A DNA stretch of 64,000 nt from a phage. The notes under the pieces are model-generated. The model was given only the letters and a program-made list of their open reading frames with translations, was not told the origin of the DNA and ran no database searches. Where the stretch lies: sequence record PZ496581.1; one strand, written 5' to 3'. The stretch's first letter is position 1; each line of letters begins with the position of its first letter. Shown here one piece after another: positions 839 to 63,584 of the stretch. The position numbers and the translations under genes were made by a program.

Positions 839-1025
839 GTTTCAACCCTTTAATAGGAGATAACTCTTTACCCATACGTATGTCAGAAGTCCCATCAACC
901 CATTGAACAGCATACGCTTCATTGATAATTCCAGCGGCAGTTTTAAATTCGTTGAGAACTTTAAAAATCATCCCAGGAATTCCAACACCTTTTAATTGGA
1001 CTGTTTGTGCTATTAAAAATTTCAT
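828..1025 (-). CDS. Hypothetical small protein (65 aa)
   Basis: Track ORF on the minus strand. Confidence 0.35.
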   Translation of the reverse strand: MKFLIAQTVQLKGVGIPGMIFKVLNEFKTAAGIINEAYAVQWVDGTSDIRMGKELSPIKGLKHVE

Positions 1026-1079
1026 ATTTTTCCACTTACTAAAGAAATCATTATACTCTAATCCGTCCTTGGATGTACA

Positions 1080-1694
1080 CTACTTAATGAAATTAATTTC
1101 TACCGGATGAACAACAGGTTGAGCAGTGATATATTGAGTAATTGCTTTCATGACTAGAGCTTCAGAACCAGGATTTTTCTCAACGAATTCACGTGCTAGG
1201 TTATGAGCTTCGAGTTCACTCAATAAACCGGAACGCTGGCATCCACGGTCTTGAGTACCCTGTTCAGATAAAAGGACTACTACATATTTTTCATCGTCGT
1301 AGGGCTTAGCCAGTTGAGCAAATGTTCCTTTACTTCCAAAAGGAGAGTTATGTCGCCACATCACGCCGTGAGGAGTTTCAACCTTCGTATATTCGTGCGG
1401 TCCATTTTTCTTAGTTTCTTGATGTGGAACTTCATAGACCTTAGGGTTAGGACATTCAATAAAATGCTCATCTAAATCGGTCGAGAATATTAAAGTAAAA
1501 CAATTACTGAATTTACCAACACCGGCCTGATAAATTTTACCTTCAGAAGTTCTAATTTCACAAACTGAGCCGGCATCAGTAACTTCTAAAACTTCAAAAG
1601 GCTCAATAAGGTCATATGAGAACATGTTTTTAAGGCGTGGAGTAATATCCCCATTTTTAAAATTCATTTTATAAAAAGTATTAACTTTAAACAT
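1080..1694 (-). CDS. Hypothetical protein (~204 aa; start moved to MFKVNTF)
   Basis: Track ORF 1080..1724; the first 10 codons overlap the hairpin at 1707..1722, so the internal ATG is preferred. Confidence 0.5.
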   Translation of the reverse strand: MFKVNTFYKMNFKNGDITPRLKNMFSYDLIEPFEVLEVTDAGSVCEIRTSEGKIYQAGVGKFSNCFTLIFSTDLDEHFIECPNPKVYEVPHQETKKNGPHEYTKVETPHGVMWRHNSPFGSKGTFAQLAKPYDDEKYVVVLLSEQGTQDRGCQRSGLLSELEAHNLAREFVEKNPGSEALVMKAITQYITAQPVVHPVEINFIK

Positions 1695-1706
1695 AATTTC
1701 CTCAGT

Positions 1707-1722
1707 GGGAGCCGAAGCTCCC
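1707..1722 (-). terminator. UUCG-tetraloop hairpin (RNA stability/terminator-like element)
   Basis: gggagc-cgaa-gctccc; reads GGGAGC-UUCG-GCUCCC on the minus-strand RNA; intercistronic. Confidence 0.35.
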
Positions 1723-19621: not shown

Positions 19622-19735
19622 TACCTTTTATTTAGATTATTTAATTTATTTACAGTTGGTTGCTACGACACTAGTTGGTTGCTACGACACTTATACCTCG
19701 TAGCTGGTATGATTTATTTATAAAGTAATTTTAAC
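19622..19735 (-). promoter_or_regulatory. Gene 32 5' leader: candidate translational operator (structured element plus AU-rich tract)
   Basis: Stem GCUACGA/UCGUAGC, then CAACCAAC, then AU-rich UAAAUAAAUUAAAUAAUCUAAAUAAAAGG before the AUG; contains a 19-bp tandem duplication. Confidence 0.5.
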
Positions 19736-19751
19736 ACACAAGAAATAAAGC

Positions 19752-20405
19752 TTAATACTTACATGATTTGATTGTTTCTATGAACAATTTCTTAGCAGCA
19801 TTTCCATCGATTTGAAGTATTTTTCGATATGCCTTTAATTTGGTAGAATAATTTTGCCAGACTAAATTATCGGTGAGTTCGTCGTGCTTATCTATAATAT
19901 TCAAAAACGAGTCCAACAATAAGAAAGTTTCAAATGAAATTATATTGCTTTGTAGCAATTTAAATATGTAGCTCGACTGAACGTTGTTATTATAATCAAA
20001 TATCTCTTGAAGCGCACTAACTTCAACTTTCTTACTGAAATAGTAGATGTTACGTACGTCTTCAGCAAACGTCTCTTTAGCTTGTTTTAGTCGTCCAATA
20101 TATTCCCTATAGAAAACTAATGCATCAGCGTCTGATATCTCACCAATCCATGCGTCTTGGTTAGCAACTAAGTTGCTTATGAATATCAAGGTGAGTTCCT
20201 TCAATTTATATTTCTCTGATAGTTTTTCAAAGAAATATTTATCTCGGCGTTTTTGATACGCATTATCCGAAACACGCATGCACCAGTTATATTTGATTAC
20301 GTCATACCGACCACCAAAGTGGTTTTTGCACATCAAGTATAGTTTATATACTGATTTACCGTTAATATAACGTTCTCCGTCAGGAGGCATACGTATTTTA
20401 ATCAT
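19752..20405 (-). CDS. 59: gp59 helicase loader (217 aa)
   Basis: MIKIRMPPDGERYINGKSVYKLYLM...KYNWCMRVSD...QSSYIFKLLQSNIISFETF near-identical to remembered T4 gp59. Confidence 0.9.
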   Translation of the reverse strand: MIKIRMPPDGERYINGKSVYKLYLMCKNHFGGRYDVIKYNWCMRVSDNAYQKRRDKYFFEKLSEKYKLKELTLIFISNLVANQDAWIGEISDADALVFYREYIGRLKQAKETFAEDVRNIYYFSKKVEVSALQEIFDYNNNVQSSYIFKLLQSNIISFETFLLLDSFLNIIDKHDELTDNLVWQNYSTKLKAYRKILQIDGNAAKKLFIETIKSCKY

Positions 20406-20740
20406 AATAAGAAATCTAACGTATTAGTTTTTTCACCACGAGCAACTGATGGGCGAAGCATGTTTTCGTCAATTGCTTCGCTTGTAATTTTTTCAACAAT
20501 TCCTGTAGGAATAAATTTAGCAAATTGTGTTTCTGGAATAGAATTTTCTTCCAAGAAAGCAGTTGTTGCTTCTAAATAAGACATACCAAATTGTTCAACC
20601 ATGGATTCGATAATGAATCCGTTTTCTTGTCGGTCAAGCAATTTAGCGATATCATCTTTATCGTGTTTTACTGCTAATTCTTGTTCAGATAAACCGGCCT
20701 CATCAACCGGTTTAATATCACTTAGTGAAAACTGTGTCAT
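20402..20740 (-). CDS. 33: gp33 late-transcription co-activator (112 aa)
   Basis: Length, position between 59 and dsbA, and C-terminal ...TNTLDFLL tail. Confidence 0.8.
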   Translation of the reverse strand: MTQFSLSDIKPVDEAGLSEQELAVKHDKDDIAKLLDRQENGFIIESMVEQFGMSYLEATTAFLEENSIPETQFAKFIPTGIVEKITSEAIDENMLRPSVARGEKTNTLDFLL

Positions 20741-20987
20741 AAAGCTCGACTACCTCTTCGTTTTCAGCTTCAAATTGGTCACGAGCGTCTTTATGATAAA
20801 GAGCTAACAAACGATTAAACATTTTTCCATCGACACCAAGCTCTTCTTTAACACGAGTACGAATGTCTTTAATCAGTTCATTATAACCAGAAATTTTAAG
20901 TTTGTTATCGGAAGCTTCCTTGACTAGTTTAGCCAGTTCTTCACCATGCACATCTTGATTAAATTCAACTGCTTCTTTCTTAGCCAT
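20718..20987 (-). CDS. dsbA: DsbA late-transcription accessory dsDNA-binding protein (~89 aa; start at MAKKEAVEF)
   Basis: Position between rnh and 33; size matches T4 DsbA once the start is moved to an internal ATG. Confidence 0.6.
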   Translation of the reverse strand: MAKKEAVEFNQDVHGEELAKLVKEASDNKLKISGYNELIKDIRTRVKEELGVDGKMFNRLLALYHKDARDQFEAENEEVVELYDTVFTK

Positions 20988-20994
20988 GTTTACC

Positions 20995-21912
20995 TCAGAA
21001 TTCATTAATTACACTTGTTAATTTAGAAAGACCGGATTTTACAAAATATGAATAAATCTTGCCTTTAGGTTGTTGTTTATATGAGTTATAATACTCTATA
21101 ATGGTTGAAGCAATATTATCAGGGATATAATCAAAATCAATGAGAACCAAATTTTCTTGATACCGTTTATATTCTTCTGCACTTAATAATACTTCAGCTT
21201 GAGAACGGTCATTGGCAATTGCTTCAATAATCGTTGTTTTCATGCTCGGAGTTCGTTCACCATCAACTCTGGTAAACCAGAAGTCGCCACGAACTCGAAC
21301 AGATGCAACACCATCCTTACGGTCACCTTTAAGAATTTTAGTCATGCAATCAATTTCAGCAGAACCGTTCTTAATTTTAACCCATTTTTTCTGTGGTGGT
21401 GACCACTGTTTAACGTTAGGATATTTGTGTAATTGTGTAAAGTCACCATCTGATGCAACAATACATACTTTATGTCCGGCTAATGACAAATATTTAGTTA
21501 ATACACCAATATGGTCATCCGCTTCATACTTGTCAATATCCATTACAACGTATGGCATGTATTTCTTAATCTCATCAACAACTTGATGGAGTGCAGTAAA
21601 ATATCCTTCCCAATCCCACTTTGAAGCTTCACGATCGGTTTTACGATTTTTCTTGTAATAGTAAGCAAAGTCCCGACGCCAATAACCTGAAGTAGCATTA
21701 TCCATACACAATACAAATTTTGTATAGCCTTGCTTACGGAACATCACTACGTTTTTACGAATTGAATTCAAGATTACATGGCGAACCATCGGAACAGTAA
21801 TTTTATCACCATCTTCAAAGTTGTTTAATGCGGCTGCCAATGCAATGTTACTAAAGTCGGCAAGTGCAATACCTTCTTTGTAATCTTCATCCAACATCAT
21901 TTCTAAATCCAT
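20995..21912 (-). CDS. rnh: RNase H (5'-3' exonuclease, FEN family), 305 aa
   Basis: Same length as T4 Rnh; divergent from gene 34 as in T4. Confidence 0.9.
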   Translation of the reverse strand: MDLEMMLDEDYKEGIALADFSNIALAAALNNFEDGDKITVPMVRHVILNSIRKNVVMFRKQGYTKFVLCMDNATSGYWRRDFAYYYKKNRKTDREASKWDWEGYFTALHQVVDEIKKYMPYVVMDIDKYEADDHIGVLTKYLSLAGHKVCIVASDGDFTQLHKYPNVKQWSPPQKKWVKIKNGSAEIDCMTKILKGDRKDGVASVRVRGDFWFTRVDGERTPSMKTTIIEAIANDRSQAEVLLSAEEYKRYQENLVLIDFDYIPDNIASTIIEYYNSYKQQPKGKIYSYFVKSGLSKLTSVINEF

Positions 21913-21944
21913 ATGAACCTCTTGTTCAGTTAGTCAACTTGACT

Positions 21945-21974
21945 ATAGTAACACACTCATTTGAAAGCGTAAAC
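21945..21974 (-). promoter_or_regulatory. T4-type early promoter for rnh (-35 GTTTAC, 18 nt, -10 TACTAT)
   Basis: Palindrome agtcaacttgact lies downstream of the -10; back-to-back with the gene 34 late promoter. Confidence 0.45.
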
Positions 21975-21977
21975 TGG

Positions 21978-21985
21978 TATAAATA
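21978..21985 (+). promoter_or_regulatory. T4 late promoter TATAAATA for gene 34
   Basis: Exact TATAAATA ~30 nt upstream of the gene 34 ATG, with an AAAGGA ribosome-binding site between. Confidence 0.55.
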
Positions 21986-22015
21986 AGTATTATTGAAACA
22001 ATAAAGGAAAAACGA

Positions 22016-25000
22016 ATGGCCGACATCAAACGTAAGTTCAGAGCCGAAGACGGTCTGGACGCCGGTGGCGACAAGATTGTTAACGTAGCATTAGCCGACC
22101 GTACAGTAGGTACTGATGGCGTAAACGTTGACTTCCTGGTACAAGAAAACACCGTTCAAGTATATGATTCTACGCGTGGATATAACAAAGGATTTGTTGT
22201 TCTTTATGACAACCGTTTATATCAAGCAATAAATGATATCGTGTCTCCTTCCGGGGCATTTAACCTTTTACAATGGCGTGCAGTTCGTACCGATGCACAA
22301 TGGATAACTGTCGCTTCTGGGACTTATCAACTTTCTTCAGGTGAATCGATTTCGGTTAACACTGGTGCCGGCAATGATATGGTTTTCACATTGCCAAATA
22401 CTCCGGTTGATGGTGATACTGTTGTTTTGGCTGATATTGGTGGAAGAACCGGGACAGTTAAAGTACAGATTAACGCGTCTGTGCAGAGTATTTTAAACTT
22501 TAGAGGTGAACAAGTTCGTACAGTTTTAATGACGCGCCCACGTTCACAACTATTGTTTGTGTTTAGTAATCGTTTGTGGCAGATGTATATTACCGATTAT
22601 GGTAAAGAATCAATCACTGTTACACCTGCGACACCATATCAAGCACAAGCAAATGATTTTATCGTTCGTCGTTTTACTAGTGCAGCACCAATCAACATTA
22701 CACTTCCACGTAATGCTAATAATGGTGATATAATCCACCTAGTTGATTTAGATAAATTAAACCCACTGTATCATACAATTGTTAAAACATTTGATGATAC
22801 AACGTCTATTGGTGAAGTCGGGACTCATATTGCCGAAGGCAGAAATGACTCTGACGCGTTTTTTGTTTTTGATGCTGCAAATAGTTTATGGCGTATATGG
22901 GAAGGCGACCAGAAATCGCGTCTTCGTATTATCCGTGCGGATTCAAATATTCGTCCAAATGAAGAAGTTCTTATTTTTGGCACAAATAACGCTACAACCG
23001 GAACTATTAATCTTACGCTGCCTTCCGGAATTTTGAGTGGTGACAGTGTTAAAATTTCAATGAACTACATGCGTAAAGGCCAAACAGTAAAAATTAAAGC
23101 TGCCAAAGGTGATACAATTGCTTCTTCTGTTGCATTGCTTCAGTTCCCTAAACGTTCTGAATATCCACCTGATGCTCAATGGGTCTCTGTTACTGAACTA
23201 GAATTCAATGGCACTACTTCATATGTTCCTGTATTAGAATTAGCGTATATCGAAGACACCGTTGCTGGTACACGTTATTGGGTTGTGCAACAGAATGTCC
23301 CTACGGTAGAACGTGTTGATGCTGGAACTGATGCTACACGAGCTCGTTTAGGTGTTATTGCTCTTGCTACTCAAGCGCAAGCAAATGTTGATTTAGAGAA
23401 TACTCCAGCTAAAGAAGTGGCTATTACTCCTGAAACGTTGGCAAATCGTACAGCAACTGAAGCTCGACGTGGTATCGCTAAAATTGCTACAACAGCACAA
23501 GTTAACCAGAATTCCACAGCAGCATTTGTGGACGATACTATTGTTACGCCTAAAAAACTAAATGAGCGTACAGCAACTGAAACTCGTCGCGGTCTTGCTG
23601 AAATTGCTACTCAGACTGAAACCGATGCTGGTCTTGATGACACAACGATTATTACACCTAAGAAATTGCAGGCACGTCAGGGTTCTGAAACACTATCTGG
23701 TATAGTTAAATATGTATCAACTACTTCTGCTACTCCTGCTGAAACTCGTGGGGCTGCAGGCACTAACGTTTATAATAAAACCGTAAATAATTTAACTATT
23801 TCTCCTAAAGCCCTTGACCAATATAAAGCAACTTATGCTCAACAAGGTGCAGTAATTTTAGCTGTTGATAGTGAAGTAATTGCTGGACAATCTCAAGCAG
23901 GTTATTCTCATGCTGTAGTAACTCCTGAAACACTACATAAGAAAACTTCTACTGATGGACGTATTGGTTTAATTGAAATTGCTACGCAAGCAGAAACTAA
24001 TGCTGGGACTGATTATACACGTGCAGTAACGCCTAAGACGTTAAATGATAGGAAAGCTACGGAAGGATTATCCGGCATAGCCGAACTTGCTACGCAAGTT
24101 GAATTTGATACTGGAACTGATGATACTCGTATCTCGACTCCACTGAAAATTAAAACTCATTTTGATTCTTCTGACCGTACCAGTGTTAATTCTGATTCCG
24201 GACTTATTGAAGAAGGAACCTTGTGGAACCATTATACTCTTGATATTTCTAAAGCAAATGAAACACAACGTGGTACACTTCGCGTAGCGACCCAGGCAGA
24301 ATCTAATGCAGGAACTTTAGATGATGTTCTTATTACTCCTAAAAAGCTTTTAGGGACTAAGTCCACTGAAACGTCTGAAGGCGTAATTAAGGTTGCTACT
24401 CAGGCTGAAACTGTAACAGGAACTTCTGCTAATACTGCTGTATCTCCTAAGAATTTAAAATGGATTGTCCAGTCTGAACCAACATGGGCTGCTACTACAG
24501 CAATTCGTGGATTTGTTAAAACTTCATCTGGTTCAATTACATTCGTTGGTAATGATACAGTCGGTTCTACCCAAGATTTAGAACTGTACGAGAAAAATAG
24601 CTATGCGGTATCACCATATGAATTAAATCGCGTATTAGCAAATTATTTGCCATTGAAAGCTAAAGCCGTAGATAGTAATTTATTAGATGGACTAGATTCA
24701 TCTCAGTTCATTCGTAGGGACATTGCACAGACGGTTAATGGTTCACTAACCTTAACCCAACAAACGAATCTGAGTGCCCCTCTTGTATCATCTAGTACTG
24801 CTACGTTTGGTGGTTCAGTTTCGGCAAATAGTACATTAACTATTTCTAACTCTGGAACAGCAACTCGTCTGATTTTTGAAAAGGGACCTCAAACTGGAAC
24901 TAACCCAGCGCAGACGATGACTATCAGAGTTTGGGGAAATCAGTTTGGCGGCGGATCAGATACAACACGTTCTACTGTATTTGAAGTTGGAGATGAAACA

Positions 25001-47564: not shown

Positions 47565-47593
47565 ATAATACCAAAACCAGAGGAGAAGTAAAC
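47565..47593 (-). promoter_or_regulatory. T4-type early promoter (-35 GTTTAC, 17 nt, -10 TATTAT) nested in a 9-bp inverted repeat that pairs with the downstream Shine-Dalgarno
   Basis: 5' arm CUCCUCUGG lies in the -35/-10 spacer; 3' arm CCAGAGGAG (47545..47553) contains the GAGGAG ribosome-binding site of 47014..47538. Confidence 0.45.
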
Positions 47594-50868: not shown

Positions 50869-51615
50869 TTAACCTTTAATCAGTTGGAATAATGATGCGC
50901 TAAGTGGTAAGCCACGTTTCAATTTTAATTTACCAATGAAACCAATCTTTTCAAAACGTTGCAGACCTTGGATAACTTTATCATATGTATCGAAAAGCGA
51001 TTCAGCGTCAGTTAATTTAGTTTTAGTTTTCCAGTCAGAGCCTTTAAGAAGAACGTTGAGTTTAGTAAGTTCATGGCCTTCTGCTTGATGTGAGCCATTA
51101 ATGCGTGCTTTCAAAGCAACAATTCTAAGTTTAGATTCGTTAGATAAAGGTTGATTTTTCATCATGTTCGCCATATGCTTAACACGATTTTCACGTTTTG
51201 CTCGGATTTTTAAAATAGTGTCATAAACCTTTTTAATTTGGGCCCATTTCTTCTCGTCGAGATTAAGTTTCTCTACTTTACGGGCAGAAGGATTAGCGAT
51301 ACGTCTTGCAATGGCATCACGTTTCCTAATAAGTTCTTCTAATGTTAAATCAGAACGAGCCGTGTTATATTTTTTCTTAACTGGGATAACATTACCTTTA
51401 ATGTAGCCTATATCATTATTAAAACGTTCTAAGGATAATTTCTCACCTTCAACAGAGTTATTAAAAGATTCACCTGAGTAAGCGCAGACCTTTTGATCAA
51501 GAATGTTTTTAAGGTAATTAAAGTCTAAGTTAAAATCCTTAGAGCGTCTCTTCGCAGAAGCTCTGGTGTGGTCAAGACGTCGATTGATTTTGTTAATTTT
51601 ATTATTTGATAACAT
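50869..51615 (-). CDS. Basic protein with degenerate HNH-like segment (248 aa); positional candidate for Srd
   Basis: VCAYSGESF...LSLERFNNDIGYIKGNVIPV resembles an HNH core without the usual Cys/His ligands; lies between dda and the Mod paralogues. Confidence 0.4.
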   Translation of the reverse strand: MLSNNKINKINRRLDHTRASAKRRSKDFNLDFNYLKNILDQKVCAYSGESFNNSVEGEKLSLERFNNDIGYIKGNVIPVKKKYNTARSDLTLEELIRKRDAIARRIANPSARKVEKLNLDEKKWAQIKKVYDTILKIRAKRENRVKHMANMMKNQPLSNESKLRIVALKARINGSHQAEGHELTKLNVLLKGSDWKTKTKLTDAESLFDTYDKVIQGLQRFEKIGFIGKLKLKRGLPLSASLFQLIKG

Positions 51616-51768: not shown

Positions 51769-52377
51769 TCAGTAACTGACAATAGACAGATTCCAGATTG
51801 TATAACGTCCATCTTGAATAATAGAATCTACACGTAGTGTAGTCCCTATAGGGAGCATAAATTCACATTCGTCAGATATAAGTCTAGCATTAGACCGTCT
51901 TGTCGCTTCAGGGAAAGCTCCATTGAACTCACAAGATGGCGCAGCCAGAATCATGTTAAGCATATGTTCACGGAAGTTGAAAGCAAATGGTGCATCTTTG
52001 ATGCAGAACATATTAAATGTTCCGTAAAAATTATACGAAGCAAAGTTACGTGCTACACCGAACACTGGGCTGAAGCTCATTACTCTGTCAAATTTAATAA
52101 TACTACCAATGCCTTTATCATCGAGTGTGGCCATAGTTTTCTTAGAGATTCCACGATACATTGTCTCAGGAACAGAAGACGACCAATTTCTACGAACAAT
52201 TGCACTTAAATCTTGTTGGATGCTATCGGGCTTGTTTTCCATACACTGCCACAGTACACTTTGTTCAATGTCGCTGAATTGCTCATCGATTTTGTACTGA
52301 AGCATATCTTGATAATCTGGGCATTGAGCACGACGAACCATTTCTTCAATTTCACACTCGTTATACGGCATAAACAT
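51769..52377 (-). CDS. Mod-family ADP-ribosyltransferase-like protein (202 aa)
   Basis: R-S-E style motifs: MYRGI, FSPVFGVARNF, SDECEF; tandem paralogue of 52435..53016; ModA versus ModB not resolved. Confidence 0.6.
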   Translation of the reverse strand: MFMPYNECEIEEMVRRAQCPDYQDMLQYKIDEQFSDIEQSVLWQCMENKPDSIQQDLSAIVRRNWSSSVPETMYRGISKKTMATLDDKGIGSIIKFDRVMSFSPVFGVARNFASYNFYGTFNMFCIKDAPFAFNFREHMLNMILAAPSCEFNGAFPEATRRSNARLISDECEFMLPIGTTLRVDSIIQDGRYTIWNLSIVSY

Positions 52378-52434: not shown

Positions 52435-53016
52435 CTAAAAATTCAACATTTTCAAATGAATGATTTTGTATAATCGAGATAAAGGGTCATATTCTAAGTC
52501 TTCAATTTCCACAATCTCAAATCGAGAGATACCTGAGACCATGTACTCTTGTTCAGATTCAATCATATCTAGGACATCGATACGAGTTTCTTCCATAACA
52601 TGCTTAGGGTTCTTTCCGGCGAGTACAATGTTAACCATGTTTTGGTAGTAATCAAAAATGAATGGAGCATTCCTGAGACTAAGAATAGTGTACGTCTGAT
52701 ATTCCCATCTCCCGGAGAATTGACGAGCTGTACTGAAATCAGTTGTGAACGATGTTACTCGTCCAGGAGACCAATGGCATCCAACAGAAAGAAGGGAAAG
52801 ACGTTCTACTTCTTCTGGAGTTACACCACGGTAGAGTTCTACTGGTACTGTAGAAGTCATATGCTTACGAACAAGATGGTCTAATTCATAGTGGAAATCC
52901 GGGTCTTCCTTAGAATCGGTGCAAGCCCAGAGAATGTTTTGTTCTTGGCGGGTGAATTTGCTATCAATCAGATTTGTTAGGTATTCACGTTCTTGAAGTT
53001 CAGATTGACATGTCAT
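52435..53016 (-). CDS. Mod-family ADP-ribosyltransferase-like protein (193 aa)
   Basis: R-S-E style motifs: LYRGV, FTTDFSTARQF, ESEQEY; tandem paralogue of 51769..52377. Confidence 0.6.
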   Translation of the reverse strand: MTCQSELQEREYLTNLIDSKFTRQEQNILWACTDSKEDPDFHYELDHLVRKHMTSTVPVELYRGVTPEEVERLSLLSVGCHWSPGRVTSFTTDFSTARQFSGRWEYQTYTILSLRNAPFIFDYYQNMVNIVLAGKNPKHVMEETRIDVLDMIESEQEYMVSGISRFEIVEIEDLEYDPLSRLYKIIHLKMLNF

Positions 53017-56952: not shown

Positions 56953-57447
56953 TCACAACTTATTAATATTTACTTTAATTCGCTTTCTTTTCTTGGAAGG
57001 AATTTGTTCGGGACCTTTATTTACGACTGCACCTGTAGTTGTTCCTGATGCAATAGCTTGAGGACTGCCGCCTGAATCACCAGCAACCATATCCTCAAAT
57101 AAAGGGAGTTCTTTAAATATTTCTTTCTGTTGTTCTTCCGTAATGTTATAGCGTGAAGCTACAGCACTCCAAGCAGACATCATTGATGCCATTCCATTAA
57201 GACCTGGAACAGTGTTCATCATTCGCTTCATTGAACGAACTGAAGCATGAAAAGGTGTATAAGCCGCTTTCTCTTCAGGAGTGGAAGGGCGTTTAAGAAC
57301 ACTTCCACGTTCATCGATGATTTTGGCTTCGTATGCTTTCCATTCGGTAAAAGGTTTTTGCATTAGTCGAATAAACTTATATGCGTAAACAGAATCTATT
57401 GCAGTGTTAATAATACCCATAGGTACCTCCTGAGTATATTTAATCAA
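56953..57447 (-). CDS. Hypothetical protein (164 aa)
   Basis: Track ORF. Confidence 0.5.
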   Translation of the reverse strand: MIKYTQEVPMGIINTAIDSVYAYKFIRLMQKPFTEWKAYEAKIIDERGSVLKRPSTPEEKAAYTPFHASVRSMKRMMNTVPGLNGMASMMSAWSAVASRYNITEEQQKEIFKELPLFEDMVAGDSGGSPQAIASGTTTGAVVNKGPEQIPSKKRKRIKVNINKL

Positions 57448-57637
57448 TTACAAAGATTGCTTTGTCACCATTTATATCTGTGACTTCATATGTAGTGCCT
57501 TCATACTGTGGAATATTCCAAATTACACCGTCATTAGCTTTTACGCTAATATGGCATTGGTGTTTTGAAACAACTTCATAATCTTCAAAACTTGTAAAAA
57601 CACTAATTTTAGAACCAGTGCAAATTGCAGTAGTCAT
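57440..57637 (-). CDS. Hypothetical protein (65 aa)
   Basis: Track ORF. Confidence 0.4.
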   Translation of the reverse strand: MTTAICTGSKISVFTSFEDYEVVSKHQCHISVKANDGVIWNIPQYEGTTYEVTDINGDKAIFVID

Positions 57638-57638
57638 T

Positions 57639-58298
57639 TTAACCTCGATTCATAAATGCATTAAATATTTGGTCATCAACAGAAATTTCTAATTCGACTT
57701 CAATTGCTTCAGCCTTTTCTTCAGGTGGTAATTCGTATCCACACACTACAATTTTTTCATCGATATCAAAATATACAGAAGCAATACGATTAATGTTATT
57801 TTCAGTTAAGTCTAATTCAACATCAACATCTTTTTGGCCTACACTTAGAGGATAACTAATACGGGTTATTTTATTATCTTTAACAAAGAGTCCACCAACA
57901 TACTCTGTACTACGTTTGAAGTTTACACGTTTCCGAATTGAAAGATATGATGCATCTTTACCGTGAGCTCGGCTCATAGCACATAATGAATAGCTAGAAT
58001 AAGAGATGTCAAATCCTACACCTTCAATATGAGCCAACGTGTCATGATTAAACCAATTATAATCATATGCCAAATCCATTATATTGTAATATGTGAAAGG
58101 CACAGGATTAACATCATATGTTGTACCTTTAAAATCTGCCCAGGCAACGATTTCGTTATCTTTAACAATTACAAAAATTACACCGAGATGGTATCCGTTA
58201 TTATTTTCATTCGGCGTTATATTATAACATTGTGCATTAGGAAATTTACCATATTTAAATGGCGCATTTTTGTGCATATAATAAATCATATTATTCAC
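57639..58298 (-). CDS. Hypothetical protein (219 aa)
   Basis: Track ORF. Confidence 0.5.
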   Translation of the reverse strand: MNNMIYYMHKNAPFKYGKFPNAQCYNITPNENNNGYHLGVIFVIVKDNEIVAWADFKGTTYDVNPVPFTYYNIMDLAYDYNWFNHDTLAHIEGVGFDISYSSYSLCAMSRAHGKDASYLSIRKRVNFKRSTEYVGGLFVKDNKITRISYPLSVGQKDVDVELDLTENNINRIASVYFDIDEKIVVCGYELPPEEKAEAIEVELEISVDDQIFNAFMNRG

Positions 58299-58584
58299 CT
58301 GTGATTTCGGTTACGATATCTTTGTTATCGAAATTAGGGTCACAATACAAAACATAGTTGTACTGCATGATACCGCCAGACTTAAGTTGTTCAACAACTT
58401 TATTAACCATATTAGGACGGTCTCGTTTAGTGATGTTCATGATATCAGAGAAGATTTGTTGTTCAACATCTTCTTGATTTGCAGTCATTGACCACTCACA
58501 GAGGTCTTTATCATAACCTGCCGTAACTGGAGCCGGTGCACATGATACTGCAAGTAAGATTGCTGCCAATGATAACTTTTTCAT
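58291..58584 (-). CDS. sp: Spackle periplasmic superinfection-exclusion protein (97 aa)
   Basis: Signal peptide then AGYDKDLCEWSMTANQEDVE...LKSGGIMQYNYVLYCDPNFDNKDIVTEITGE, matching remembered T4 Sp. Confidence 0.8.
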   Translation of the reverse strand: MKKLSLAAILLAVSCAPAPVTAGYDKDLCEWSMTANQEDVEQQIFSDIMNITKRDRPNMVNKVVEQLKSGGIMQYNYVLYCDPNFDNKDIVTEITGE

Positions 58585-58647: not shown

Positions 58648-58896
58648 TTATTCTTTTTCGCGAATAATAATTACTTGTTGAGGCTGCTGAGCCGATTTCT
58701 TTTCGGCAACGATAGACCAAATTAAAGTTCCAATCCAACCAACCATCGTCCAGTTAAAGAGTAAAGATACAAAGAAAATTGCTGTTGTGCTTTTTGTGCC
58801 ACGAATAAGTGCGATTACCCAAGGCAACATGTAAATGATGATTGAACCAATACCTGCGATTAAAACTGCTACTGAACTAGCTACGAATAATTCCAT
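58648..58896 (-). CDS. Superinfection-immunity (Imm-like) small membrane protein (82 aa)
   Basis: YMLPWVIALIRGTKSTTAIFFVSLLFNWTMVGWIGTLIWSIV resembles the superinfection-immunity family signature; two TM helices. Confidence 0.5.
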   Translation of the reverse strand: MELFVASSVAVLIAGIGSIIIYMLPWVIALIRGTKSTTAIFFVSLLFNWTMVGWIGTLIWSIVAEKKSAQQPQQVIIIREKE

Positions 58897-58957: not shown

Positions 58958-59326
58958 TTAATTAAATTTGTTTAAACGTTCAATACACTGGACGTAGTTA
59001 TTCGCGATTTGTTTCTGGGTAGGCTCTTTACCGGTTGTTTCAACATAGCGAATGAATGCGATTTCAGTAGCCTGTAAGCAATGTTCTTTAACGCGTTGTT
59101 CTTTTGACAATGCTACAGTATCAGAGTCACGATAACGTTGAGCATGGGCATCAGCTTGAATCATTCGATTACCTACAGTAACCGGGTCTTCCACTTCAAC
59201 TTTAGGTTGGTCGTACTGTTTAACATTCGGATTGTAAATCAATTGGCCGACGTTATTAGGGATAAAGCCATGGGCACCACATCCGGTTAATCCAAACACC
59301 ATTGCTAAAGCGATTAATTTTTTCAT
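58958..59326 (-). CDS. Lipoprotein (122 aa)
   Basis: Signal peptide with lipobox LTGC (MKKLIALAMVFGLTGC). Confidence 0.5.
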   Translation of the reverse strand: MKKLIALAMVFGLTGCGAHGFIPNNVGQLIYNPNVKQYDQPKVEVEDPVTVGNRMIQADAHAQRYRDSDTVALSKEQRVKEHCLQATEIAFIRYVETTGKEPTQKQIANNYVQCIERLNKFN

Positions 59327-59386
59327 TTCAATTTCCTCTGTAGTTGATAGAAAGATAGTAACACAGTATGTGGTGCTTGTAAACAG

Positions 59387-59644
59387 CTATTTTAAACTTT
59401 TGCGAAATTTGCGTTTTTCTTGACGAATCTGTCGTTTAGTCGGACGTACAGCAAATTTAACGAAGTCCACTTTGCCGTGTGGAAACTTTTCAGATGCTTC
59501 GCAGTCCATCATTAGTTCCCATCCTTCCAGAATAAGAGCTTTCCATTGTGTAGTTGATGCAAATTCGTATGTTGATGGTTTAAACACAGTTGAATACATA
59601 TTATCCTCTGAAATCAGCTTCAAAAACTTTCTCGTCATTAACAA
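59387..59644 (-). CDS. Hypothetical protein (85 aa or shorter)
   Basis: Track ORF; C-terminal basic tail. Confidence 0.4.
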   Translation of the reverse strand: MLMTRKFLKLISEDNMYSTVFKPSTYEFASTTQWKALILEGWELMMDCEASEKFPHGKVDFVKFAVRPTKRQIRQEKRKFRKSLK

Positions 59645-59792
59645 ATGCTTTAACTAATGCTTTGTTCACTTCAGCAAGTTGTACCGTAACCCACTCGATT
59701 TCTTCGCGATCACCTGATAACATGATATCTTTAGTGAACATCTCACCGCTTTTAAACCAACCGATAAAAGTAACTTTAGTTAATTTGCTCAT
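59601..59792 (-). CDS. dmd: Dmd antitoxin (inhibitor of RnlA/LsoA RNases), ~63 aa
   Basis: KVTFIGWFKSGEMFTKDIM...AEVNKALVKAFVNDEKVFEADFRG matches remembered T4 Dmd; start moved to MSKLTKV. Confidence 0.75.
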   Translation of the reverse strand: MSKLTKVTFIGWFKSGEMFTKDIMLSGDREEIEWVTVQLAEVNKALVKAFVNDEKVFEADFRG

Positions 59793-60106
59793 ATTTCCTC
59801 GCAAAATGCCCATTCAGCGTGATAAACTGTAGCACCTTTAGTATTATTCATTTGAACTACGTCTACCGGAGAAATTACTCGATAGAGACGTGGTTCACCT
59901 CCATAAGAGCGTGCTGCTCGTCCTGCATAAATCTTTGCTAAACCGATATCTTCAGTAAAGAATACACGATCCAAGTTTTTCTTACGTCCAGTTTCAGACA
60001 GAACTCCTGTTTCCTCAGGAGGACAAAGCATGTTTTCGATGTTAGCTGAACTACTTGAACCGTGATAAAAAATCTTAAATTCTGCTTTACAATCGATGGT
60101 TTTCAT
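59789..60106 (-). CDS. Hypothetical protein (105 aa) with H-G-S motif
   Basis: Track ORF; contains FYHGSSS; between gene 41 and dmd. Confidence 0.45.
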   Translation of the reverse strand: MKTIDCKAEFKIFYHGSSSSANIENMLCPPEETGVLSETGRKKNLDRVFFTEDIGLAKIYAGRAARSYGGEPRLYRVISPVDVVQMNNTKGATVYHAEWAFCEEI

Positions 60107-60132
60107 TTTGTTCTCCAGTAGTTGATAGGACT

Positions 60133-60161
60133 ATAATAACACAACTACTGGAGAAGTAAAC
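60133..60161 (-). promoter_or_regulatory. T4-type early promoter (-35 GTTTAC, 17 nt, -10 TATTAT) nested in a 12-bp inverted repeat that pairs with the downstream Shine-Dalgarno
   Basis: Arms at 60142..60153 (in the spacer) and 60113..60124 (contains the GGAG of 59789..60106). Confidence 0.45.
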
Positions 60162-60536
60162 TTAAAAACGTAATTTAGATATATCTGCGTTGATTTCGTT
60201 TTGGTTTGCATCGTATGCAATTAAACGAACCGCTTTAGATGGGTCATTCAATGCATAGAAATGATGGAACATTGCTCGAACGATATCACCATTTACGAGT
60301 TCTACCTGGATAGGAGAACCTTTTTCGAGTTGGAAATGTTCATAAGCTTTGATGGTTCGTAGATAATCAAGTTTTTGATTTCCGGCTCCAACTATTTGTA
60401 CGATACGTTTGCCCATGTTTTCCATACGAGATACAATAGTTTTAGGAGCAAGAATAACGTAGGTTGCCAGTGGAGAAACTACTTCAACAGTTGTGTTTTC
60501 GGTGATTGCAGTAAAAATTGCTTGAGACATATTCAT
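60162..60536 (-). CDS. Hypothetical protein (124 aa)
   Basis: Track ORF directly downstream of gene 41. Confidence 0.45.
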   Translation of the reverse strand: MNMSQAIFTAITENTTVEVVSPLATYVILAPKTIVSRMENMGKRIVQIVGAGNQKLDYLRTIKAYEHFQLEKGSPIQVELVNGDIVRAMFHHFYALNDPSKAVRLIAYDANQNEINADISKLRF

Positions 60537-60602
60537 AATGTTTTCCTCTTGGTTGGTGTAAGTACATCATATCATGCCTAGAGGAAGATGTAAACCCCGA
60601 AA

Positions 60603-60618
60603 GGAGACCGAAGTCTCC
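60603..60618 (-). terminator. UUCG-tetraloop hairpin downstream of gene 41
   Basis: ggagac-cgaa-gtctcc; the -35 GTTTAC of the next promoter follows. Confidence 0.4.
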
Positions 60619-60625
60619 TTTTTTA

Positions 60626-62068
60626 TTAAAATTTTAACTCATTGGCTAAGCTATCTAGGTCAGCACGTGTTGCTTTGGCTTTACCTACGCGTTCCGTACG
60701 ATTCACCTCTGCCTGACGCATCTGAGCACCTGCGTTTTCATTTACTGTGTTAGGTGTGTTCATGCCTTCTTGCTCAATCTCAATCCATTTCTGGTTGCCT
60801 TTACGTACACCCATCAGGAATTTATTCCACTTATTCTTATCACCATATCGTGATTTGATTTGTTTGATAAGTTGTTGTTCAGCTTGTGCAAGTTCTTCGG
60901 TTTCAATTACGGCCAACATGAAATCTGCCGTTGCTGGTAAACCTGCTGATTCTGCGATATCACTCATGTTCATATCCGAAGCATCCCATGCTGCACGTCC
61001 TACTTGAGCTGCAGTCCATAGAACCGTTTCAGATTCTACTGCTAATGCACGAAGTTCTTCTGCGATAGCTTTAACTAATGTGTAGCTATTTTCAGTGTAA
61101 ACTCTGATACGACAAGACCCACAAATACCTAAGTAATCAACCATGATTACAGATGGCACAAAGTTCTTCTTAAGTTTTAACTCATTAAGCAATGCACGGA
61201 ATGTATTAGCATTAGCTCCACCAGTAGGATACTGTTTAACTACTAAACGTCCTAATGTGGATTTTGAACGCCATTTTTCCATCTTGGCTTTATATTCAGC
61301 ATAAGATACGTTACCATCATCGATATCATCGAGTGATACGTCAAGCATGTTTGCATCTATACGCTTAGCACAAACTTCTTCAGCCATTTCCATGGAAATA
61401 TAAAGAACATTATGACCTGTTTGAAGATAATCTGCAGCAAGTGAACAAAGGCCTAAAGATTTACCAACGTTAACACCGGCCATTAAAACGTTTAGTGTAC
61501 CTGTTTCAGCACCACCTTTAGTGATTTTATTCAAAATGTTTAATTTGAACGGGACCTTACGTGCTTTATTTAGATAAGAAAGCCAGCGTGCTTCGTAGTC
61601 TTCCATCCAGTCATGTCCAACATAACTATCGAACGAAATTGAAAGTGCTTGACGCATAATATCAGGAATAGCTCCTACGTCAGGCATTTTCTTGTTACGT
61701 TGTTCTGGAGGTAGTTCAGCATTAGACTGAATCTCAATGATTTTGGATGTAGCATTATACATCGCTTTTTGCTGGACATATTTCTCAGTTTCTTTAACCA
61801 ACCATTCATGGTCTTCAGGAGTATCAGCCAATTTTTCAATTAGGTCTGAAGTTCCTTTATATTCGGCTTCAGTTAAAGAACTGTTATCTAAAGCCACCTT
61901 TAACGCATTGATAGATGGCATTGCATTATATTCGTTAACGTGGCTCTTTATAATTTTAAAGACATTTTTTGCCGGTCCACGCTCAAAATACTCAGAATCC
62001 ATATAAGGCCAGACCTTAGAAAAATAAGCCTGGTCATATACGAGATGAGACAAAATAATTTCTACCAC
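60626..62068 (-). CDS. 41: gp41 replicative helicase (DnaB-like), 480 aa
   Basis: Walker A GVNVGKS; N-terminal helical domain; T4 gene order 41-61. Confidence 0.9.
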   Translation of the reverse strand: MVEIILSHLVYDQAYFSKVWPYMDSEYFERGPAKNVFKIIKSHVNEYNAMPSINALKVALDNSSLTEAEYKGTSDLIEKLADTPEDHEWLVKETEKYVQQKAMYNATSKIIEIQSNAELPPEQRNKKMPDVGAIPDIMRQALSISFDSYVGHDWMEDYEARWLSYLNKARKVPFKLNILNKITKGGAETGTLNVLMAGVNVGKSLGLCSLAADYLQTGHNVLYISMEMAEEVCAKRIDANMLDVSLDDIDDGNVSYAEYKAKMEKWRSKSTLGRLVVKQYPTGGANANTFRALLNELKLKKNFVPSVIMVDYLGICGSCRIRVYTENSYTLVKAIAEELRALAVESETVLWTAAQVGRAAWDASDMNMSDIAESAGLPATADFMLAVIETEELAQAEQQLIKQIKSRYGDKNKWNKFLMGVRKGNQKWIEIEQEGMNTPNTVNENAGAQMRQAEVNRTERVGKAKATRADLDSLANELKF

Positions 62069-62077
62069 GATAACTCC

Positions 62078-62440
62078 TTAAAAGAATTTAAATTTTTTCT
62101 TGGTTCGTTCATTAAAAGCTTGTTGTACTTGCATTGTAACACATTTTTCAACATGTGGTGCAAGTTCTGCTTTTCTGTCCTGGTCAAGAACTGCAAAGTC
62201 CATTACGATTTTACCATCAACCCAGTCTAGTTTTGTAATATAGACTATATGATGGGAACCGTCTTCAAGTGTAATCAGAATCTCTTGAATGACATTTTCC
62301 ATTGCTGAACGGATAATTTTAAGAGATTCATTAAACACTCGTTCTTTGCGAATGTCCTCCCCTTCCGAAGAAGGGGATTCATCAACGATTTCTAGATTTA
62401 AATCATCGAGATTATTCATCGAAATCTTCCATTTCGTCAA
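62078..62440 (-). CDS. 40: gp40-like protein (120 aa)
   Basis: Position between uvsX and 41 as in T4; similar size; sequence not independently recognised. Confidence 0.55.
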   Translation of the reverse strand: MTKWKISMNNLDDLNLEIVDESPSSEGEDIRKERVFNESLKIIRSAMENVIQEILITLEDGSHHIVYITKLDWVDGKIVMDFAVLDQDRKAELAPHVEKCVTMQVQQAFNERTKKKFKFF

Positions 62441-63584
62441 GGTCGTTTTCTATATCTGCTGCAGATGGAGCATCAGAAGTTTTAACCGGAACTTTAGTTG
62501 TTGCTTTGCAATTAATAAGGTCGTTAACAGCGTCATCAACTTCTTTAATAGAAGAGATAGCACCTAGTTTATATTTAGTTTCAATTGCATCTCGGAAAGG
62601 TTTGTGTTTAAACAAAGGTCCCCAGAATTCTACACAATCAGTAGCTTTAGCACGCCATGATTTTTCTTCACGAATCATTTCACCTGTTTCTTCGTCAAGG
62701 AATTCGCGAGCATACCAACCGGCTTTAGGCTTAACCACAAAACCGATTTCAGTTGCCATTTCTAACAAGCCACTGAATGGGTCAATACCGCCATCAAAAT
62801 TAACCGTGATCGGGAAAGTAGATTTCTCTTTAACTGTGCGAGATTTTTCTGCTTTCAACGTGAAGTCATAACCGGTCAATTCTGTACCTTCTTTAACCTG
62901 ACGTTTAGAGATAAAAAACACTGTGTTGGCAGAATAAAGAATACCTGTACCACCGCCCATAATCTCTTTAGGATACAATCCGCCAATTTCCATTGCGGTA
63001 TGGTTAATTGCAACACACGGAATATCTTTAATAGTCAGATACGGGGTCACAATACGGAAAAGAGATTTAAGTGCCTTAGCACGAGACATATCACCTACAA
63101 CTTTCTCGTTCAATGCATCTTCAGTTTCTTTCTTAGATGCAGTATTACCGATTGAATCGATAAAGATAATAACTTTATCACCCCGTTCAATCGCGTCAAG
63201 CTGATTAGTCATATCAACTTTAAGTTGTTCGACGGATTGAATCGGAGTATGAACTACACGGTCTAAATCAACACCCATTGAACGAAAATAAGATTCTGAA
63301 GCACCGAATTCTGAGTCATAAAACAAACAGATTGCATCTTTATATTTCTTCATATACGCTGCGACCATAGTTAGTCCAAACAATGTTTTAAAATGTTTAG
63401 AAGGTGCAGCAAAAATAGTCAAGCCTGATTGCAATCCTGCATTCAGAGCACCACCTAGTGCAATATTCAACATCGGAATACGAGTAGGGACTTCATCACG
63501 ATTATTAAACAGCTTAGACTTAGTCAAGTCTGCAGTCATTTTAGAAGTAGAAGCTTTAATCAGACGAGATTTTAAATCAGACAT
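62412..63584 (-). CDS. uvsX: UvsX recombinase (RecA-like), 390 aa
   Basis: MSDLKSRLIKASTSKMTADLTKSKLFNN...IPMLNIALGGALNAGLQSGLTIFAAPSKHFKTLFGL matches remembered T4 UvsX. Confidence 0.9.
   Translation of the reverse strand: MSDLKSRLIKASTSKMTADLTKSKLFNNRDEVPTRIPMLNIALGGALNAGLQSGLTIFAAPSKHFKTLFGLTMVAAYMKKYKDAICLFYDSEFGASESYFRSMGVDLDRVVHTPIQSVEQLKVDMTNQLDAIERGDKVIIFIDSIGNTASKKETEDALNEKVVGDMSRAKALKSLFRIVTPYLTIKDIPCVAINHTAMEIGGLYPKEIMGGGTGILYSANTVFFISKRQVKEGTELTGYDFTLKAEKSRTVKEKSTFPITVNFDGGIDPFSGLLEMATEIGFVVKPKAGWYAREFLDEETGEMIREEKSWRAKATDCVEFWGPLFKHKPFRDAIETKYKLGAISSIKEVDDAVNDLINCKATTKVPVKTSDAPSAADIENDLDEMEDFDE

Follow-up and report, generated by a model that had tools for sequence, protein, structure and literature searches.

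The window analyzed here, a 64,000-nucleotide stretch of sequence record PZ496581.1, derives from an RB69-type T-even phage (genus Mosigvirus) and carries two minus-strand open reading frames (ORFs) between gene 41 and dmd, here called ORF041c (positions 60162 to 60536) and ORF040c (59789 to 60106). On balance, we favor the explanation that ORF040c encodes a minimal Arr-like ADP-ribosyltransferase (ART) that is made early and under translational gating and that ORF041c is a separate cassette. Both ORFs start with ATG; ORF041c encodes a product of 124 amino acids (aa) (14 kDa, pI 8.0) and ORF040c one of 105 aa (11.8 kDa, pI 6.1). Positions 59300 to 60700 are 99.1% identical to positions 19663 to 21061 of RB69 (AY303349), in which the two ORFs are annotated as RB69ORF041c and RB69ORF040c, each a "hypothetical protein," between gene 41 and dmd. 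An earlier note, made from the sequence alone, had drawn attention to these two additional ORFs, to a nearly direct passage from gene 41 to dmd in T4, and to an FYHGSSS motif in the 105-aa product. All three observations held: the ORFs are present, gene 41 (20612 to 22039) and dmd (20371 to 20553) of T4 (NC_000866) are separated by 58 bp with no ORF between them, and the motif occupies residues 13 to 19 of ORF040c. The uninterrupted T4-type junction was found in 501 phage records and the RB69-type two-ORF layout in 130. Conservation of the 105-aa product in 610 phage records and of the 124-aa product in 135 argues that both are more than chance reading frames.

The structure of ORF040c was predicted with AlphaFold2 (AF2) from an alignment of 27 family members. 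The model (predicted local distance difference test score [pLDDT], 89.4; predicted template modeling score [pTM], 0.80) displayed a split β-sheet and the strand-helix-strand-helix-four-strand order of a minimal ART core. When the model was compared to the PDB with Foldseek, Arr came first with a probability of 1.00, followed by KptA entries. Among the viral structures of BFVD, the first match beyond the immediate family was a phage protein of 94 aa that carries an Arr-ms annotation (E value of 2.7e-8; 37% identity). The earlier note had likened the motif of the 105-aa product to ADP-ribosyltransferase or Tpt1-like folds, and the structural guess was borne out by the model, the Foldseek search, and the profile link to Arr described below; structure prediction gave an ART fold rather than an unrelated one.

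Sequence profiles connected ORF040c to Arr as well. Searching 1.84 billion representative proteins with a profile yielded 219 relatives, and a profile built from 47 diverse members reached Arr-ms (2HW2/9IAF; E value of 2.4e-4) and Arr-2 (E value of 0.021) among 177,635 PDB sequences. Alignment with Arr-2 by hhalign covered residues 7 to 82 of ORF040c in 72 columns (probability of 94.4%; E value of 9.4e-8); residues 15 to 88 of the Arr-2 sequence used are identical to the PDB chain, and the aligned part lies within that stretch. Taken individually, 14 of the 47 relatives matched Pfam Arr-ms at an E value of 0.01 or better (best, 2e-7), and just one matched any other Pfam family (DUF5865; E value of 0.0045). 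Moreover, the distant relatives P0149 (29.4 bits), P0132 (27.5 bits), and P0129 (26.9 bits) exceeded the Pfam Arr-ms gathering threshold of 25 bits. We conclude with high confidence that ORF040c has an ART fold and that its core shares common descent with Arr.

The motifs of the ORF040c core are Y14-H15-G16-S17, S37-E38-x-G40-R41-K-K43-N44, V48-F49-F50-T51, Y60-A-G-R63, and G69-G70. Conservation was counted in 222 relatives, 119 of them close and 103 distant. Near-invariant positions were Y14-H15-G16-[ST]17, P29-P30, T33, E38-x-G40-R41-x-K43-N44, V48-F49-x-T51, A57, Y60-A61, R63, G69-G70, G91, and V94. Consistent with an NAD+ pocket, H15 was present in 220 of the 222 relatives and G16 and Y60 in 221 each, with S or T at position 17 and T or S at position 51. 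Position 49 was F or Y in every relative (Phe in 219). H15 aligns with Arr His19, and F49 aligns with Arr Tyr49. E38 was the sole universally conserved acidic residue and lies in an E-x-G-R motif common with Arr (FEAGR/FEDGR); it is the only universal acidic candidate for a catalytic role. E103 was also considered as a family-wide catalytic Glu and was rejected, being invariant in the close T4-like subfamily only. We conclude that the nicotinamide-pocket signature is retained in ORF040c.

ORF040c is widespread. Identity in the 610 phage records, as determined by tblastn, was mostly 60 to 100%, and the carriers are T4-like phages of Escherichia, Klebsiella, Acinetobacter, Aeromonas, Enterobacter, Cronobacter, Vibrio, and others. 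A search of 5.8 billion proteins gave 140 clusters of relatives. None has a Pfam domain, and depositors labeled a few of them "ADP-ribosyl transferase," a name that the RefSeq record of phage HX01 likewise gives the homologue. Family members are very small (96 to 105 aa), the corresponding PHROGs family (phrog_2110) is listed as being of unknown function, and a literature search on RB69ORF040c or Arr-like phage ARTs returned nothing specific. In genomes where the neighboring ORF041c is only 36 to 54% identical, ORF040c is 82 to 89% identical, the kind of contrast expected where an enzyme sits beside an arms-race protein.

The position of ORF040c varies. JS98 (Dhakavirus) carries the homologue straight after gene 41 and before dmd, without ORF041c. 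Klebsiella phage KP15 has it upstream of srd and rnlB, Aeromonas phage 25 has it between hoc and 30.6, and Acinetobacter phage 133 has it among ORFans located between 41 and 61.1. Orthologues are therefore not universal at the site that the earlier note had singled out, as the T4 junction has none and KP15 and Aeromonas phage 25 carry the gene elsewhere. A six-frame profile search of T4 positions 1 to 50,000 gave no ORF040c match, with the remaining 119 kb not searched. Because its position differs among genera, we conclude that ORF040c is a mobile accessory cassette and not a fixed partner of dmd.

Many of the relatives are ORF040c-type domains embedded in very large phage proteins (870 to 3,924 aa), beside ART-PolyVal, NUDIX, GNAT, CHAP, and tape-measure domains. 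In P0141 (3,735 aa), the domain spans residues 1326 to 1421 and is followed by ART-PolyVal at residues 1496 to 1660; in P0168 (1,955 aa), it is preceded by ART-PolyVal and followed by NUDIX; and in the shorter P0133 (354 aa), it is again preceded by ART-PolyVal. Elsewhere, it accompanies GNAT and Toprim (P0178; 1,046 aa), a tape-measure domain (P0153; 3,924 aa, with the ORF040c-type domain at residues 590 to 696), CHAP (P0181; 2,892 aa), or DUF7178 (P0154 and P0138; 530 and 475 aa, respectively), and the gene for P0149 is located among phage replication genes. Proteins of this kind, termed polyvalent, have been proposed to accompany the invading DNA into the host and disarm or reprogram it, and the ART described for them is of the HYD2 type (PMC5512222). 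The Arr-like domain is a second, distinct ART module of polyvalent proteins, and its occurrence there is the main contextual argument for an early action of ORF040c on the host. We note that P0168 and P0141 each contain a tandem of two different ART-fold domains, ART-PolyVal and the ORF040c/Arr-like domain, and the succession of ARTs and then NUDIX in P0168 hints at coupled making and processing of ADP-ribose derivatives.

Several observations weigh against ORF040c being an active Arr-like ART. The single ORF040c sequence had no match in Pfam, NCBIfam, or the PDB, a profile of the close family had none in the PDB, and the link to Arr appeared solely after the profile was widened with distant relatives. 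Homology to Arr stops after strand 3, at the end of residues 7 to 82, and leaves the C-terminal third unaligned. According to the part of PMC13246000 that cites Baysarowich 2008, the residues needed for Arr-ms activity are His19, Tyr49, and Asp84; ORF040c keeps the His, has Phe in place of Tyr49, and cannot be aligned in the Asp84 region. There is no conserved acid at residues 85 to 93, where Asp84 would fall, and position 88 is Asn in the window and Asp in 90 of the 119 close relatives, 27 of the 103 distant ones, and 117 of the 222 overall. Because a conserved acid is missing at the place of Asp84, catalysis via the canonical H-Y-[ED] route is not assured for ORF040c. Finally, no target, partner, or eraser gene was evident, and a functional link between ORF040c and dmd is weakened by the placement of the gene elsewhere in KP15, Aeromonas phage 25, and Acinetobacter phage 133.

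One explanation of the missing acid is that ORF040c is a catalytically dead ART fold that acts through binding, either by soaking up immune signals derived from NAD+ or ADP-ribose or by serving as a decoy for, or inhibiting, an ART toxin system of the host (DarTG, for instance). The lack of a universal acid at the strand-5 position, N88 in the window, the change from Arr Tyr49 to Phe, a size of just 96 to 105 aa, and the gene for the anti-DarT factor AdfA only 1.5 kb away would all be consistent with such a role. Mono-ARTs (PARP H-Y-Φ enzymes) and Tpt1 work without the canonical Glu, however, and the H-G-[ST], F-x-T, and Y residues of the pocket, together with E38 and R41, are almost invariant in the 222 relatives, as is typical of an enzyme. 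Very slow evolution is likewise enzyme-typical, and polyvalent proteins carry the domain as one of a fused series of enzymatic domains. We therefore regard a dead ART as unlikely and predict that ORF040c is enzymatically active, with a confidence that is only moderate because the canonical acid is missing.

As Arr was the only family reached by the sequence profile, ORF040c might be a true Arr that acts on rifamycins or a related natural product and keeps the host RNA polymerase usable. T4-type phages rely on host RNA polymerase throughout infection, which would fit such an activity. The comparison with Arr itself argues otherwise. Identity is only about 17 to 25%, and Arr is 38 to 45 residues longer: alignments end at Arr residue 81 to 88 of 143 to 150, Pfam Arr-ms matches span model positions 1 to 66 or 67 of 99, and ORF040c finishes 20 residues further, such that the C-terminal part of Arr that completes the rifamycin cleft has no counterpart. 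Moreover, neither Tyr49 nor Asp84 is kept, and the ORF040c of the window did not match Pfam Arr-ms (PF12120) even at an E value of 1, with the gathering threshold not reached. We consider it extremely unlikely that ORF040c is a true Arr.

Another alternative takes up the KptA entries in the Foldseek results and makes ORF040c a Tpt1/KptA-like enzyme that would serve the repair or protection of phage RNA by removing 2′-phosphates or capping 5′-phosphates with ADP-ribose and that would be functionally linked to Dmd and RNA ligase. ORF040c is a single lobe of 105 aa without the N-terminal RNA lobe, whereas the matched Tpt1 chains have 177 to 187 aa, and only 75 residues were superposed. Neither ORF040c nor any of the 47 relatives had a Tpt1 match in Pfam, and the PDB profile search gave none either, while the same profile reached Arr. 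In addition, ORF040c is not basic (pI 6.1), and proximity to dmd or rnlB is not conserved. A Tpt1-like function is thus quite unlikely.

We return to ORF040c as a stand-alone, minimal NAD+-binding ART domain, which would form a phage-restricted branch of the Arr-like (H-type) clade. Most likely, ORF040c would move ADP-ribose from NAD+ to a host or host defense target early in infection, and candidate targets are a protein, a nucleic acid end, or a small molecule. A role in host takeover or anti-defense, which the earlier note had also suggested, is plausible. A bolder version holds that the family is a new class of minimal phage ART and that the substrate is not a host housekeeping protein but a specific immune component or small molecule, for example, a defense nucleotide second messenger or an anti-phage natural product. 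To our knowledge, no ART other than Arr is known to act on the hydroxyl of a small molecule. We find the bolder version doubtful. If it were true, hundreds of T4-like phages would carry an enzymatic anti-defense factor that is reused in injected polyvalent proteins; if the target were ordinary, e.g., if ORF040c were another RNA polymerase modifier, the gain would be a corrected annotation for a widespread phage family.

Expression of ORF040c was approached through the region upstream of its start codon. A promoter of the sigma-70/T4 early type is predicted at positions 60133 to 60160 of the minus strand, with a −35 element TTTACT (60160 to 60155), a 16-nt spacer, and a TG-extended −10 element TATTAT (60138 to 60133). 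Inverted-repeat search and folding both indicated a hairpin on the same strand (60111 to 60155), in which the 5′ arm UUCUCCAGUAGUUG (60155 to 60142) lies within the promoter spacer and pairs with the 3′ arm CAACUACUGGAGAA (60124 to 60111) in a perfect 14-bp stem. The 3′ arm holds the GGAG Shine-Dalgarno sequence (60116 to 60113), 6 nt before the ATG at 60106. The folding free energy (dG) was −24.7 kcal/mol (z = −5.55), and none of 200 shuffled sequences was as stable. At the homologous locus L009, the stem differs in sequence and still pairs (TTCTCCTGGTTAG/CTAACCAGGAGAA) and covers the ribosome site; other homologous loci have a weakened stem, and KP15 and Aeromonas phage 25 have the stem elsewhere in the promoter.

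The geometry of promoter and hairpin suggests how translation of ORF040c could be gated. Transcription from the ORF040c promoter would begin straight after infection, and as the start site would be a few bases past the −10 box, the transcript would not contain the 5′ arm and GGAG would be free. By contrast, read-through RNA from gene 41 and ORF041c would contain both arms and would be translated poorly. Sequestration of a ribosome site that is relieved by a proximal promoter has been reported for T4 genes e, soc, 49, and I-TevI (PMC3014915). The ORF040c hairpin resembles that of gene e in that the 3′ arm lies over the Shine-Dalgarno sequence and differs from the four T4 cases in that the relieving promoter is late there and of the early type at ORF040c.

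ORF040c would be the first gene of a unit with dmd and 61.4. The dmd ATG overlaps the TGA stop of ORF040c (ATGA), and the GAGG ribosome site of dmd lies within the last ORF040c codons; we therefore consider ORF040c, dmd, and 61.4 to form one tight unit here, in which dmd is probably cotranscribed with ORF040c and translational coupling is predicted. We note that the last two ORF040c codons before the stop, GAG GAA (E103-E104; 59789 to 59800, minus strand), are the dmd Shine-Dalgarno sequence too. The dual constraint of coding and ribosome binding may be one reason why E103 does not vary among close family members.

ORF041c is also preceded by a promoter and a hairpin. Its early-type promoter (TTTACA-17-TATGAT with a TG extension; 10 of 12 matches) is predicted at positions 60566 to 60594 of the minus strand. 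Right after the gene 41 stop, a stem-loop with a 9-bp stem and a UUCG tetraloop, AAAGGAGAC-UUCG-GUCUCCUUU, is found on the same strand at positions 60600 to 60621, and JS98 has an equivalent hairpin that is followed by a T-run. A weaker inverted repeat (60543 to 60586, minus strand; 10 nt, 90%) has one arm, UUCCUCUAGG, in the spacer of the ORF041c promoter and the other, CCAAGAGGAA, over the ribosome site of that gene; the repeat was outside the minimum-energy fold and was not conserved in homologous loci.

These arrangements correspond to PeSL cassettes, in which an early promoter and a stem-loop stand upstream of variable ORFans in plastic regions and of which one subclass has the stem between −35 and −10 (PMC2839356). 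The published consensus of the T4-type PeSL promoter is TTTACW-N17-TAYWAT (PMC4122927). In likeness to PeSL as described in the two reports, both ORFs have an early promoter of the form TTTAC[AT]-N16/17-TA[TY]NAT (TTTACT-16-TATTAT for ORF040c and TTTACA-17-TATGAT for ORF041c) and a stem-loop (the 14-bp stem and the 9-bp UUCG hairpin, respectively), directly before ORFans that are variably present among T-even phages. The 3′ hairpin of gene 41 and the ORF041c promoter together appear to constitute a PeSL-type terminator/promoter cassette, whereas the ORF040c hairpin, which lacks a T-run, shows no sign of the reported terminator function. TTTACW-N16-18-TAYWAT occurred 15 times in the window against 0.95 expected, 14 times on the minus, early-gene strand (e.g., at 2581 to 2608, 47565 to 47592, and 60133 to 60160). 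We note that several of the consensus spacers contain inverted repeats and that at least three start with (T)CTCC, which could serve as an anti-Shine-Dalgarno arm as in ORF040c; this suggests a recurrent design in the window for masking promoter-proximal ribosome sites. The earlier note had credited ORF040c with its own promoter and with an inverted repeat covering its ribosome site. Both are present, and we conclude that the ORF040c module is of the already described PeSL type and is not special to ORF040c.

ORF041c resisted assignment. Its PHROGs family (phrog_10668) is of unknown function, and a profile search recovered only 6 clusters of relatives among 5.8 billion proteins. Searches of Pfam, NCBIfam, and the PDB gave matches at chance level only: HSBP1, YmzC, phosphoheptose isomerase (E value of 0.08), and dehydroquinate dehydratase (17 bits against a cutoff of 329). 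The AF2 model, which was built from a three-sequence alignment, was unusable (pLDDT 36), and no fold search was made with it. Of the 135 phage records with ORF041c, 133 are of the Mosigvirus type (at least 95% identity) and 2 fall below 60%, one of them Dhakavirus ABTNLsp5. Despite this divergence, an N-terminal helix and FHHFY motifs are conserved. In view of the fast divergence, a protein-binding inhibitor would be a candidate function, which is only a guess.

The proximity of the two genes raises the alternative that ORF041c and ORF040c are a two-gene system, such as an enzyme with a regulator, immunity, or targeting partner. Mosigvirus, Dhakavirus ABTNLsp5, and four metagenomic contigs (L009 to L012) all have them side by side with the order unchanged, even with ORF041c at 35 to 54% identity. 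Each gene was also found without the other, however. ORF040c stands alone in JS98, KP15, Acinetobacter phage 133, and Aeromonas phage 25, and ORF041c homologues occur without an ORF040c-family match in L013, a metagenomic T4-like contig in which an unrelated 253-aa ORF (951 to 1712, plus strand) takes the place of ORF040c, and in L014, in which spackle follows directly. Moreover, the 610 records with ORF040c compare to 135 with ORF041c, each gene has its own promoter, and ORF041c was constant in position, directly downstream of gene 41 in every locus examined, and not in neighbor. A two-gene system is thus very unlikely, and ORF041c was rejected as an immunity or regulatory partner. Because each gene occurs without the other, we conclude that ORF041c is probably not a partner of ORF040c but a lineage-restricted, fast-evolving ORFan, an independent cassette at the same insertion spot. 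We propose that ORF041c is an independently mobile early-gene cassette that landed at a PeSL-rich spot after gene 41.

The genes around the two ORFs are all on the minus strand. Gene 41, the replicative helicase gene (60626 to 62068), forms the upstream edge of the insertion and is preceded by gene 40 (62078 to 62440) and uvsX (62412 to 63584). Downstream are dmd (59601 to 59792; 63 aa), identified by Pfam Dmd (8.9e-22) and RB69 annotation, 61.4 (59387 to 59599), three genes identified by RB69 annotation, namely, imm.1 (58958 to 59326), imm (58648 to 58896), and sp (spackle; 58291 to 58584), and 61.2/adfA (57639 to 58298), which encodes anti-DarT factor A (Pfam AdfA; E value of 3.8e-118). Host interaction genes (those for Dmd, AdfA, spackle, and Imm) thus cluster around the locus. 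We note that AdfA residue 164 (212-aa numbering) is Arg in the window; the RB69-type AdfA allele with Arg164 is reported not to neutralize DarT1 unless mutated to His (PMC11825919). We also note that imm and imm.1 are found here between sp and 61.4 and in T4 between genes 42 and 43, and we conclude that the imm genes for superinfection immunity are relocated into the plastic region between 41 and 61. Small minus-strand ORFs between 61.1 and 61.2 (56953 to 57637) correspond to RB69ORF032c/033c and are extra relative to T4, in which 61.1 abuts 61.2. In Salmonella phage ABTNLsp5, a 64-aa ORF (L008:3754-3948, plus strand) that its depositor named "translational repressor protein" separates the ORF040c homologue from dmd, and dmd is followed by a 46-aa ORF; given these extra ORFs, the junction between 41 and dmd keeps gaining small cassettes.

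Among known systems, Arr (PF12120; PDB 2HW2, 9IAF, and 9IBA) is the closest to ORF040c by sequence and structure searches, and a difference is that members of the ORF040c family come from phages and from injected giant phage proteins rather than being bacterial resistance genes. With Phe in place of Tyr49 and no conservation around Asp84, ORF040c is better not classified as Arr, and its substrate very probably differs from that of Arr. In Tpt1, the N-terminal RNA-binding lobe carries most of the catalytic Arg-His-Arg-Arg tetrad. ORF040c differs from Tpt1/KptA in having neither an RNA-binding lobe nor a sequence-level match and therefore should not be filed as Tpt1. AcrIF11 is an anti-CRISPR ART of phages and plasmids that ADP-ribosylates Cas8f (PDB 6KYF; PMC12421852). 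ORF040c has no detectable sequence relationship to AcrIF11, and nothing here points to type I-F CRISPR.

T-even phages are the classic viral ADP-ribosylation system, in which Alt, ModA, and ModB modify host RNA polymerase and other proteins for takeover. Alt, ModA, and ModB belong to the R-S-E clade and have about 200 to 680 aa (PMC5512222), and Alt has been implicated in defense evasion (bioRxiv 10.1101/2025.11.20.689424). ORF040c differs from the three T4 enzymes in belonging to the Arr-like H-type clade. The window also contains two adjacent ModA/ModB-like genes on the minus strand (51769 to 52377 and 52435 to 53016) that matched phrog_832, "RNA polymerase ADP-ribosylase," with an E value of about 1e-38 and had no Pfam match at an E value of 1e-3; srd (50869 to 51615) adjoins the pair. 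As ModA/ModB-like genes are present, ORF040c would be an additional ART from another clade. ORF040c thus points to a fourth T-even ART, of a different clade, only 96 to 105 residues in size and conserved to an unusual degree, in more than 600 sequenced T4-like phages, and would be a compact and tractable candidate both for finding a new ADP-ribosylation target in takeover or counterdefense and for defining the minimal catalytic ART unit.

Finally, ORF040c invites comparison with ART-PolyVal (PMC5512222). Domains of the ORF040c type occur in the same giant proteins as ART-PolyVal and are often adjacent to it (P0141, P0133, and P0168), and the sharing of giant proteins supports an effector that is delivered to, or made early in, the host. 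The two differ in that the ORF040c domain is Arr-ms-like and not Tox-ART-HYD2-like and in that ORF040c is a free-standing early gene in T4-like phages and not part of the virion. We conclude that ORF040c is an uncharacterized, phage-borne branch of the Arr-like ART clade and is nothing categorically new.

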